Shown piece after piece: positions 47,981-49,596 of a stretch of DNA of 64,000 nucleotides. The position numbers were made by a program, and so were the translations under genes. The first letter of the stretch is position 1; each line of letters starts with the position of its first letter. The notes beneath the pieces are model-generated. The model was not told where the DNA came from, made no database searches, and worked only from the letters and a program-made list of their open reading frames with translations. The stretch lies in the sequence record PQ480333.1, one strand, 5' to 3'. Source of the DNA: Escherichia phage NRG-P0074.

Positions 47981-48697
47981 ATGGGAAAACATAACACAAT
48001 GAAATATATCAAAGCCGTAGATTTTCAAACCGCATTTAAAGCAGTCAATCGTGAAATTTTAGAAAACCCGGAATTCGTAACTGATTCTCGTATTGGACGT
48101 TGTAATGAAATTGGGTCTATGACAGTAGTTGTTGACACTCCATCATCATTCAAAATGACCGACCCACGTATTAACCGCATCTCTTATGAATATGCCGAAG
48201 ACTTCTGGAAGTTTATGATTTCTGGTGGTACCAACGCAGAAGAAGCGTTTAAGGCATATCCTAATGTCGCTAAATTTATTTCTAAACCAAAATCAGATGT
48301 TTTGCCGGCGAACTTCAACACTTTCTATGGTCCTCGCATTGCGGCCCAATTACCAGCTCTTCTAAAAGAACTTAAAGAGAAGCCTAACTCTCGAAGAGTT
48401 GTGTTCCAAATTCTAGAAAGTTCTGATCAGGCTTTGCTTGATTCAGACGAAACGCTTGAATATCCATGTACTGACTCAGTGACTTATTATATTCGTGATG
48501 GTAAGCTTTATACCCACTGTCATATGCGTTCTCAGAACTGTGCTGTTGTTATGCAGTTGGATTTTTATCTCCAAGGAAAATTACTTCATTATATCGCTAA
48601 CGAATGTGGTGTAGAAGTTGGTGATTATACTCATACCATGGTAAGTGCCCATGTGTTTGAACGTGATTTTGATTATGTTAAAGGATTCCTTGACTAA
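47981..48697 (+). CDS. 42: dCMP hydroxymethylase gp42
   Basis: Thymidylate-synthase-like pattern PNSRRVVFQI...YTHCHMRSQNCAVVMQLDFY parallels T4 gp42 PDSRRGIMIY...MRSNDVVFGFRNDY. Confidence 0.85.
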   Translation: MGKHNTMKYIKAVDFQTAFKAVNREILENPEFVTDSRIGRCNEIGSMTVVVDTPSSFKMTDPRINRISYEYAEDFWKFMISGGTNAEEAFKAYPNVAKFISKPKSDVLPANFNTFYGPRIAAQLPALLKELKEKPNSRRVVFQILESSDQALLDSDETLEYPCTDSVTYYIRDGKLYTHCHMRSQNCAVVMQLDFYLQGKLLHYIANECGVEVGDYTHTMVSAHVFERDFDYVKGFLD

Positions 48698-49596
48698 TGG
48701 CTATTTTCCGTGTACCTATTTTGAGTATGCGGTCTTATGAAACTGGACAGTATGCCATCCTTAAGGATGGCAACTTCCAACTTCATTTGCACCGTGCTAA
48801 TCCGGGTGATGTGATTACATATCCACGTAATGCATCTGATATTAAAGAATGCGAACGTCTTTTTCCAGAATTTAAGTTTGTTCCATTATGGTATAAAGAT
48901 AACGCGTATAACACTCGTAAATATTTCTGGTCTGAAAATGAATTTGTGGTTGATTCATTAATTGCTTATTATGATTGTGATTTTCTAATCACAGATATCA
49001 CCGGATATGACGGCGCTTTTGATGTGGAATTCAATTTCAATATCACTGCAGACCCTAATAAACCACGTTTTTATATTGACGAATTCTTAAAAACCGATAT
49101 GTTGTCGGTTAATCGTTCACTTCAAACTACTGTGTTGAATGAACGTCAAAAAGAAGTGCTGGTTAACGCTGGTGCAGATGGTAATAAGATTATCGTAACG
49201 CAGAAAGTTATACGTCCTTCCATCATGCAGCGTCTTGTAGGTGATTTGGCTCCTATTCATCTAGATGGTATTTTTCATCCATTTCGAATTAGTGACCCGT
49301 GCTATCGTTTTGAACAAGTGGTTGAATGTGCAATTCAATTAGGCCAACCGCTTTATATAACCGATCCAAATAATAGCTTCGACAGAAATAAGTATCCTGA
49401 AGAAGCGTTGATTCGAATTTTTAAACCAACTAAAACTGAATACTATCAAATTCTTAAAGGACGTCCGAAGATTCAATATTTCGAAAATCCTGAAGAAGTA
49501 TTTCATCCAGGTCTTGGTGAGTTCATCTACTTTAATGCTTTAATTTCTTCACCGTATAATATACCTAAATATGAAGATGTCGTAATCGAGGAATAA
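48697..49596 (+). CDS. hypothetical protein occupying the T4 beta-glucosyltransferase slot (candidate DNA-modification accessory or transferase)
   Basis: 299 aa, TAATG-coupled to gene 42; no recognisable similarity to T4 alpha- or beta-gt by eye. Confidence 0.55.
   Translation: MAIFRVPILSMRSYETGQYAILKDGNFQLHLHRANPGDVITYPRNASDIKECERLFPEFKFVPLWYKDNAYNTRKYFWSENEFVVDSLIAYYDCDFLITDITGYDGAFDVEFNFNITADPNKPRFYIDEFLKTDMLSVNRSLQTTVLNERQKEVLVNAGADGNKIIVTQKVIRPSIMQRLVGDLAPIHLDGIFHPFRISDPCYRFEQVVECAIQLGQPLYITDPNNSFDRNKYPEEALIRIFKPTKTEYYQILKGRPKIQYFENPEEVFHPGLGEFIYFNALISSPYNIPKYEDVVIEE

Follow-up and report, generated by a model that had tools for sequence, protein, structure and literature searches.

What is the role of the gene that, in Escherichia phage NRG-P0074, occupies the place held in phage T4 by the beta-glucosyltransferase gene (b-gt)? 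We examined a stretch of 64,000 nucleotides (nt) from this phage (record PQ480333.1; hereafter, the window), in which an open reading frame (ORF) for a protein of 299 amino acids (aa) directly follows a gene of the thymidylate synthase family (ThyA-like). An earlier reading, made from the sequence alone (the sequence-only reading), had placed this ORF in the b-gt slot, and the gene orders agree with this: T4 has 42, b-gt, segA, uvsX, 40 and 41, and the window has the ThyA-like gene, the 299-aa ORF, a kinase gene, uvsX, 40 and 41. The 299-aa protein is probably the initiating sugar transferase of RB69-type cytosine hypermodification, which would transfer the sugar of uridine diphosphate (UDP)-arabinofuranose (UDP-Araf) to 5-hydroxycytosine, with DNA as the likely acceptor. 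We infer the first-transfer role, DNA as the acceptor and the residue roles proposed below from orthology, the predicted fold, synteny and the phyletic pattern. The core of the locus comprises the following features:

47981..48697, + strand: 238-aa thymidylate-synthase-family enzyme, a 5-hydroxy-deoxycytidine monophosphate (5-hydroxy-dCMP) synthase (RB69 gp48 orthologue; Pfam Thymidylat_synt; 98.7 % identity to RB69 ORF048c).
48695..48699, + strand: TAATG in which the stop of the ThyA-like gene overlaps the start of the transferase gene, as seen in the sequence itself.
48697..49596, + strand: 299-aa ORF with an ATG start, predicted initiating 5-hydroxycytosine arabinofuranosyltransferase of a compact GT-B type (PHROG 3891).
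49598..50146, + strand: 182-aa nucleotide kinase of the P-loop, Tmk-like kind (orthologue of RB69 gp45, with 98.9 % identity to ORF045c; match to PHROG 761 'thymidylate kinase' at E 3.7e-45).

The start codon of the 299-aa ORF (48697-48699) shares a base with the TAA of the upstream 238-aa ORF (48695-48697) in the context ...GAC TAATG GCT..., and the sequence AGGA lies 11 nt upstream of the start. At the other end, the stop codon (49594-49596) is followed one base on by the ATG of the kinase gene (49598), whose Shine-Dalgarno sequence, GAGGAA, sits within the final two codons of the 299-aa ORF. Because of the overlap upstream and the one-base gap downstream, the ThyA-like, 299-aa and kinase genes form a tightly packed unit; both the ORF and its coupling by TAATG, as described in the sequence-only reading, are borne out by coordinates and sequence. 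The match to PHROG 3891 spans the full length of the protein (E 3e-156), homologues occur in 348 phage records and in 138 clusters of the protein collection, and the comparison with the orthologue from phage HY126 gives 9 synonymous against 2 non-synonymous codon differences, all of which indicates that this is a real gene and not a chance ORF. The G+C content of the genes (0.34-0.42, against a window mean of 0.37) is unremarkable throughout the cluster, with no sign of recent import by composition, and a scan of the cluster for promoters and terminators was uninformative, with counts at or below shuffled expectation.

A megablast search of the window against phage records returned 153 records with 95-99 % nucleotide identity, all of them RB69-like Escherichia or Shigella phages of the genus Mosigvirus, and the RB69 proteins from ORF055c to uvsX all map onto the window, in order, with 95-100 % identity. 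The 299-aa protein is 99.3 % identical to RB69 ORF047c plus ORF046c, 47.5 % to TH1_063 of Shewanella phage Thanatos and 46 % to gp79 of Acinetobacter phage DLP3. In the RB69 record (AY303349.1; L003:7001-7901) the gene has 901 bases versus 900 in the window, and the extra base splits it into ORF047c and ORF046c. The intact 900-base version is present in more than 150 other records, and the split in RB69 has been attributed to a sequencing error, the product being named gp46:47 (Lee et al., NAR 2026, PMC13326640). Apart from the intact ORF, nothing else substantive in the gene itself differs between the window and RB69; the RB69 record contains a split of the same kind in ORF053c/ORF052c. Judged by these identities, the 299-aa gene is one already published, as RB69 gp46:47, DLP3 gp79 and TH1_063, under the name 'arabinosyltransferase 1' (PMC13326640), and TH1_063 was also singled out as a protein with a glycosyltransferase (GT) fold in the Thanatos paper (PMC12838424). 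All three are encoded in the same slot, flanked by the genes for the 5-hydroxy-dCMP synthase and the Tmk-like kinase, and share the structural matches 3c4q and 6kih. Of the 'candidate novel DNA sugar transferase' that the sequence-only reading saw here, the transferase is supported by the GT-B prediction and by its DNA-modification operon, and the novelty falls away, the protein having already been modelled and named (PMC13326640).

The base to be modified is indicated by the upstream gene, which the sequence-only reading had taken for gene 42. This is contradicted by its product, which shares only 25 % identity with T4 gp42 and 98.7 % with RB69 gp48, hardly differs from the proteins of the solved structures 9iqc (E 2.8e-160), 9ir2 and 9iqu, and contains the signature RSQN...QLD, that is, D169N and N177D in E. 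coli ThyA positions, where T4 and PS2 gp42 have RSND. In published work the D169N/N177D signature marks 5-hydroxy-dCMP synthases, and the synthesis of 5-hydroxy-dCMP with flavin and O2 was demonstrated for RB69 gp48 (PMC13326640). The 5-hydroxylase signature, RS[QEN]N, also occurs in each ThyA-like partner from Thanatos, from DLP3 and from a metagenomic phage contig of 356 kb. Because the upstream gene codes for a 5-hydroxy-dCMP synthase and not for a dCMP hydroxymethylase, the acceptor is 5-hydroxycytosine and the sugar D-arabinofuranose, rather than 5-hydroxymethylcytosine (hmC) being involved; the hmC-DNA that the sequence-only reading proposed for a transfer assay would therefore be the wrong substrate. 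The modified base of RB69 DNA consists of beta-D-Araf-(1,3)-alpha-D-Araf ether-linked to 5-hydroxy-deoxycytidine (PMC13326640; PMC13390438), which supersedes the older proposal of an arabosyl-hydroxymethylcytosine (PMC6024577).

Many GenBank records still annotate the ThyA-like gene as dCMP hydroxymethylase or thymidylate synthase. The hmC phage PS2 of Serratia has a genuine gene 42 (RSND), beta-gt and a beta-glucosyl-HMC-alpha-glucosyltransferase. Straight after gene 42 it contains FF83_gp042 (L010:5001-5927), whose homology to the 299-aa family extends over the full length (family hidden Markov model (HMM), E 5e-28) but which has degenerated, with nearly all the invariant motifs (MRS, KDGN, FRISD, TDPN and HPG) lost; it may be a remnant or have changed its function.

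The structure of the 299-aa protein was predicted from a 50-sequence alignment with a mean predicted local distance difference test (pLDDT) value of 95.3 and a predicted template modelling score (pTM) of 0.90; strands alternate with helices in two halves, and the model identifies with high confidence a two-domain GT-B glycosyltransferase. The fold check suggested in the sequence-only reading, once run, was thus positive. The top structural matches, with 245-269 residues aligned, are retaining GT-B enzymes of the GT4 type, namely sucrose-phosphate synthase (6kih), BshA (6n1x), PimA (2gej) and MshA (3c4q; Foldseek TMq 0.61-0.63), and further down the list are the HY126 glycosyltransferase 9iqz (14.4) and the DNA-bound T4 alpha-glucosyltransferase (13.1). 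In a viral structure library, the protein's own family ranks first, followed by proteins annotated as viral glycosyltransferases, and the same structural matches were reported for RB69 gp46:47 and DLP3 gp79 (PMC13326640). The two Rossmann-like domains are shared with GT4-type enzymes, and a conserved Arg that follows the initial strand of the C-terminal domain, a Gly-containing loop and an acidic residue at the start of a helix may, judging by position, lie where these enzymes bind the diphosphate and ribose of UDP; nevertheless, the 299-aa protein is much smaller and only 8-12 % identical in sequence to them.

Profile searches with the 299-aa protein gave no match in Pfam at E≤0.1, including Glycos_transf_1 (PF00534) and Glyco_trans_1_4, nor in NCBIfam, and none in a PDB sequence search, either with the single protein or with a 52-sequence family profile. 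Likewise, none of 71 distant relatives (10 + 61) had a Pfam glycosyltransferase match at E≤0.01. The window protein does contain E267-x7-E275, in the manner of the GT4 EX7E motif, but position 267 varies in the family (K, T, N and others). Membership of CAZy GT4 or PF00534 is not supported, either by a profile match or by a conserved EX7E. The RB69 ORF003c type of GT, which includes the HY126 enzyme (9iqz, 9ir0) and DLP3 gp76 and gp77, is a separate family of 366-373 aa whose members are second- or third-arabinose transferases; hhalign found no signal between the 299-aa protein and either RB69 ORF003c or an ORF003c/gp77/gp76 alignment (probability <1 %). A retaining or inverting mechanism was not derived from the GT4-like fold, an argument that was dropped because the ORF003c type is also GT4-like but has been assigned a beta linkage (PMC13326640).

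The sequence-only reading also saw no similarity to the T4 transferases. This holds for the sequence, where no homology to b-gt or a-gt was detected (hhalign against b-gt, probability 0.4 %), and fails for the fold, which is GT-B. There are other differences: the 299-aa protein is 50-100 residues shorter than T4 b-gt and a-gt, and the T4 enzymes are devoid of the Tmk-like kinase neighbour that is obligatory for the 299-aa family. Additionally, the T4 system places glucose on hmC, whereas here D-arabinofuranose is ether-linked to the ring of 5-hydroxycytosine (PMC13326640). In records OP617331.1 (Serratia phage LC53) and MH051917.1 (phage IME341) the transferase feature is labelled 'RNA polymerase binding protein', with which the predicted fold disagrees.

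The UDP-GlcNAc 2-epimerases, which share the fold, are also among the top Foldseek matches (E about 2e-6, TMq about 0.5), and the 299-aa protein could in principle be a donor-pathway enzyme, either a UDP-pentose pyrophosphorylase, as was claimed for TH1_063, or a member of the GT-B/epimerase superfamily that converts UDP-sugars in some other way. His-tagged TH1_063 incubated with UTP, xylose-1-phosphate and pyrophosphatase was reported to yield a UDP-xylose-like peak by tandem mass spectrometry (PMC12838424), although this peak might also derive from a co-purifying host uridylyltransferase or from a reverse GT reaction with contaminating UDP. The transfer assays made with the Thanatos protein used ordinary cytosine acceptors, devoid of the 5-hydroxyl, and their negative results are uninformative on transferase activity (PMC12838424). 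The 299-aa protein has no match to PF00483 or PF12804, and its structural matches are GT-B proteins and not nucleotidyltransferases; an NTP_transferase domain is supplied instead by a 561-aa neighbour, whose HY126 analogue, AfhE, is reported to be a UDP-arabinose pyrophosphorylase (as cited in PMC13326640). Because the 299-aa protein has no nucleotidyltransferase features and its neighbour contains that domain, we consider a pyrophosphorylase, and a donor-pathway enzyme in general, very improbable. The 'donor-pathway accessory protein' of the sequence-only reading has some support from the reported formation of UDP-xylose by TH1_063 and is disfavoured by the fold.

The conservation of residues points to where substrates might bind. 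There are 32 invariant positions in the 50-sequence alignment, including M11-R12-S13, K23-D24-G25-N26, R33, R74, Y126, D128, N148 and Q151 in the N-terminal half and F193, P195-F196-R197, D200, Y203, T222, P224-N225, K246 and H270-P271-G272 in the C-terminal half. The core left in 61 relatives with around 20 % identity consists of S, DGN, R, Q, PxR..D..Y, N, and H plus an E five residues on; this last position, residue 275, is E or D in the family and an invariant E in the 61 distant relatives. In the predicted structure, loops and the starts of helices in the C-terminal domain hold R197, D200, K246 and H270-P-G272, which, with E/D275, make up a candidate site for the diphosphate and ribose of UDP. 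A candidate acceptor site would be formed in the N-terminal domain by M11-R-S13, K23-D-G-N26, R33 and R74.

The order ThyA-like gene (with D169N), GT gene and Tmk-like kinase gene is kept, with protein identities of 38-48 %, in Thanatos, in DLP3 and in the 356-kb metagenomic phage contig (L006), where the GT is also accompanied by the isomerase and the kinase/nucleotidyltransferase; the proteins of the contig are only 28-50 % identical to those of the window. The 299-aa family occurs in every lineage with the cluster, the 348 records being from phages of Escherichia, Klebsiella, Serratia, Yersinia, Proteus, Enterobacter, Shewanella and Acinetobacter. Conversely, the ORF003c type is found only in phages with two or three arabinoses and is encoded elsewhere in the genome, with one copy in Mosigvirus and two in the DLP3-like Acinetobacter phages; it had no match among Serratia or Shewanella records, and no second arabinosyltransferase of this type was found in the window. 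Thanatos DNA is mono-, Mosigvirus DNA di- and DLP3-like DNA tri-arabinosylated (PMC13326640), and that of Serratia phage LC53 is mono-arabinosylated (bioRxiv 10.64898/2025.12.19.695335). One universal GT plus n-1 GTs of the ORF003c type for n sugars is what would be predicted if the former were the initiating enzyme. The synteny, the universality of the family and a number of transferases that tracks the number of sugars therefore suggest an initiating role for the 299-aa protein. This role was already proposed by Lee et al. (NAR 2026, PMC13326640), and in the literature UDP-Araf has been shown to be the donor for the later arabinose steps.

The same distribution bears on the reverse assignment, in which the ORF003c type would make the first transfer and the 299-aa protein would add the second, beta-1,3 arabinose or act as a non-catalytic GT partner. 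Such partnerships exist, since DLP3 gp76 and gp77 are both needed for a single transfer step (PMC13326640), and the solved HY126 glycosyltransferase is of the ORF003c type (9iqz, 9ir0; 366-367 residues), which is maybe the biochemically tractable enzyme. However, the mono-arabinosylating phages Thanatos and LC53 contain the 299-aa family and have no match to the ORF003c type, and the preservation of 32 invariant residues, with a core kept at around 20 % identity, fits a catalytic protein. Additionally, a citing paper (PMC13216743) reports that phage Bas46 is viable after deletion of the arabinosyltransferase Aat, which is probably the second transferase, of the ORF003c type. We consider this reverse assignment improbable.

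With the 299-aa protein as the initiating enzyme, the pathway would begin with the hydroxylation of dCMP to 5-hydroxy-dCMP by the ThyA-like enzyme, followed by phosphorylation and incorporation into phage DNA. In parallel, an arabinose-5-phosphate isomerase, a kinase/uridylyltransferase and a HAD phosphatase would produce UDP-D-arabinofuranose. The 299-aa enzyme would then hold the UDP-sugar in its C-terminal Rossmann domain and 5-hydroxycytosine, most likely as a base in newly replicated DNA, in its N-terminal domain, placing the first, alpha-linked arabinofuranose onto the C5 oxygen with release of UDP. The second arabinose would be added by the unrelated GT-B enzyme of the RB69 ORF003c type, whose gene would be outside the window.

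Several observations weigh against an initiating transferase that acts on DNA. The purified DLP3 GTs, including gp79, were singly inactive on DNA with 5-hydroxycytosine (5hoC-DNA) with either UDP-Araf or UDP-arabinopyranose (UDP-Arap), and Lee et al. cannot tell the mononucleotide from DNA as the first acceptor (PMC13326640). The accessible literature contains no direct biochemical demonstration of the transfer, and TH1_063 was reported to form UDP-xylose in vitro from UTP and xylose-1-phosphate (PMC12838424). Regarding the sequence, the 299-aa family has no detectable link to any curated GT family, and the first Glu of the GT4 EX7E motif is not conserved, with only H270 and E/D275 being so. 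A weaker point is that the family is acidic, with an isoelectric point (pI) of 4.7-5.5 compared to 9.05 for T4 beta-gt. Charge was dropped as a means to decide between DNA and nucleotide acceptors, because DLP3 gp77 is acidic yet acts on DNA.

Some of these observations, together with the tight linkage to the kinase gene, could also be explained if the 299-aa enzyme arabinosylated free 5-hydroxy-dCMP before replication, with the Tmk-like kinase acting as an arabinosyl-dCMP kinase and the polymerase using glycosylated deoxycytidine triphosphate (dCTP). The Tmk-like kinase gene directly follows the GT gene in the four distant lineages examined, and in Rhizobium phage RL38J1 the genes for kinase, GT1 and synthase are consecutive (RL38J1_214-216; Table 1, PMC13326640). 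Besides, the T4-gp1-like deoxynucleoside monophosphate (dNMP) kinase of RB69 already takes 5-hydroxy-dCMP to the diphosphate (PMC13326640), which leaves the Tmk-like kinase without an assigned job. The acidic nature of the GT family and the inactivity of DLP3 gp79 on 5hoC-DNA are in line with this route, and glycosylation at the nucleotide level was left open by the authors (PMC13326640).

Fusions provide a further argument for this linkage. An exhaustive profile search identified 226 representative relatives of the 299-aa protein, some of them of 520-600 residues, and at least four metagenomic ones (P0251, P0259, P0230 and P0236) contain the GT (PHROG 3891) followed by the kinase (PHROG 761; E 6e-16 to 6e-8) in a single chain. 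P0242 has the same arrangement with a weaker match (E 7e-4), and one GT-kinase fusion adjoins a gene for a SIS isomerase (relatives are found in the metagenomic loci L008 and L009). The kinase fusions were confirmed by a PHROG scan, small custom HMMs giving weak matches only, and phmmer searches with the kinase and HAD proteins of the window found no extra domains in the long relatives. Another five relatives (P0140, P0149, P0151, P0165 and P0167) have around 185 extra N-terminal residues with weak similarity to HAD phosphatases, and a HAD-GT fusion is weakly supported.

Nevertheless, the third arabinose of DLP3 is added on DNA (PMC13326640), the negative in vitro result with the DLP3 enzymes is given as 'data not shown' and is maybe technical, and the fusion of adjacent genes from an operon is no proof of a common substrate. 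To our knowledge, all known phage DNA glycosylations, such as those by T4 alpha-gt and beta-gt, are post-replicative, and a nucleotide-level route would be, as far as we know, the first case of a DNA precursor being glycosylated before replication. On balance, we consider this route unlikely.

Since both the gene and its probable role have been described in print, our finding adds nothing new in this respect; it shows that the reasoning from gene position in the sequence-only reading was sound, and the points of interest are the biochemistry of the transfer, the conflicting pyrophosphorylase claim and the GT-kinase linkage. According to work cited in PMC13216743, RB69-type phages owe to arabinosylated 5-hydroxycytosine a protection against restriction enzymes of type II, against the DNA glycosylase Brig1 and against CRISPR-Cas of type I. 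RB69-type phages are common candidates for therapy (the 153 near-identical records came from one search), and the identity of the first-transfer enzyme is useful for phage engineering, for the prediction of modifications from genomes and for labelling 5-hydroxycytosine.

The remaining genes of the cluster lie upstream of the ThyA-like gene and include those for the synthesis of the donor:

42896..43531, + strand: 211-aa arabinose-5-phosphate isomerase (SIS domain), for the first step of donor synthesis (100 % identity to RB69 ORF055c).
43713..45398, + strand: 561-aa sugar kinase plus sugar-1-phosphate nucleotidyltransferase, predicted to make UDP-arabinofuranose (RB69 gp52:53; HY126 AfhE analogue; identified by Pfam; >99 % identity to RB69 ORF053c and ORF052c).
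45383..46144, + strand: 253-aa GIY-YIG-type homing endonuclease (NCBIfam 'group I intron endonuclease', 63 bits, above cut-off).
46095..46484, + strand: 129-aa HAD-type phosphatase (RB69 gp51; HY126 AfhF analogue; PHROG 1238; NCBIfam capsule biosynthesis phosphatase, E 2.5e-13).
46542..47702, + strand: 386-aa U32-family protein (RB69 gp50; Pfam Peptidase_U32, E 7e-11; 99 % identity to RB69 ORF050c).
47699..47938, + strand: 79-aa ORF located ahead of the ThyA-like gene and overlapping the U32 stop codon (PHROG 8601; RB69 ORF049c, 95 % identity).

The 211-aa isomerase matches the NCBIfam models KpsF/GutQ and KdsD, under their curated cut-offs, and the role of RB69 gp55 as an arabinose-5-phosphate isomerase was assigned in PMC13326640. 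The NTP_transferase domain of the 561-aa protein, matched by both PF00483 and PF12804, is N-terminal, and the C-terminal part shows weak matches to kinase families. As cited in PMC13326640, the HY126 nucleotidyltransferase/kinase and phosphatase convert arabinose-5-phosphate to UDP-arabinofuranose. The HAD phosphatase is 97.5 % identical to RB69 ORF051c from residue 8 on; its first ca. 7 codons differ from those of RB69 and HY126, and the start is uncertain, being either TTG 46095 or ATG 46110. The endonuclease gene (45383..46144) is extra with respect to the RB69 and HY126 clusters, and separates the nucleotidyltransferase/kinase gene from the HAD gene, which abut in both phages. At the position of the 79-aa ORF, the only ORF annotated in the HY126 record is a shorter one.

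The U32 protein is the most conserved of the cluster in the comparison with Thanatos, with 79 % identity to TH1_065 versus 47.5 % for the transferase. Members of the U32 family include RlhA, involved in the formation of 5-hydroxycytidine in 23S rRNA (PMC5727448), TrhP (PMC6599085), and the O2-independent hydroxylases UbiU and UbiV (PMC6747719, PMC10990095). RB69 gp50 has been labelled only as a 'sugar or heterocycle reductase' (PMC13326640), and the sole match of the window protein to UbiU is weak (NCBIfam, E 9e-4). From its family membership, the U32 protein could be an O2-independent cytosine-5 hydroxylase that backs up the ThyA-like enzyme, which depends on O2 and flavin.

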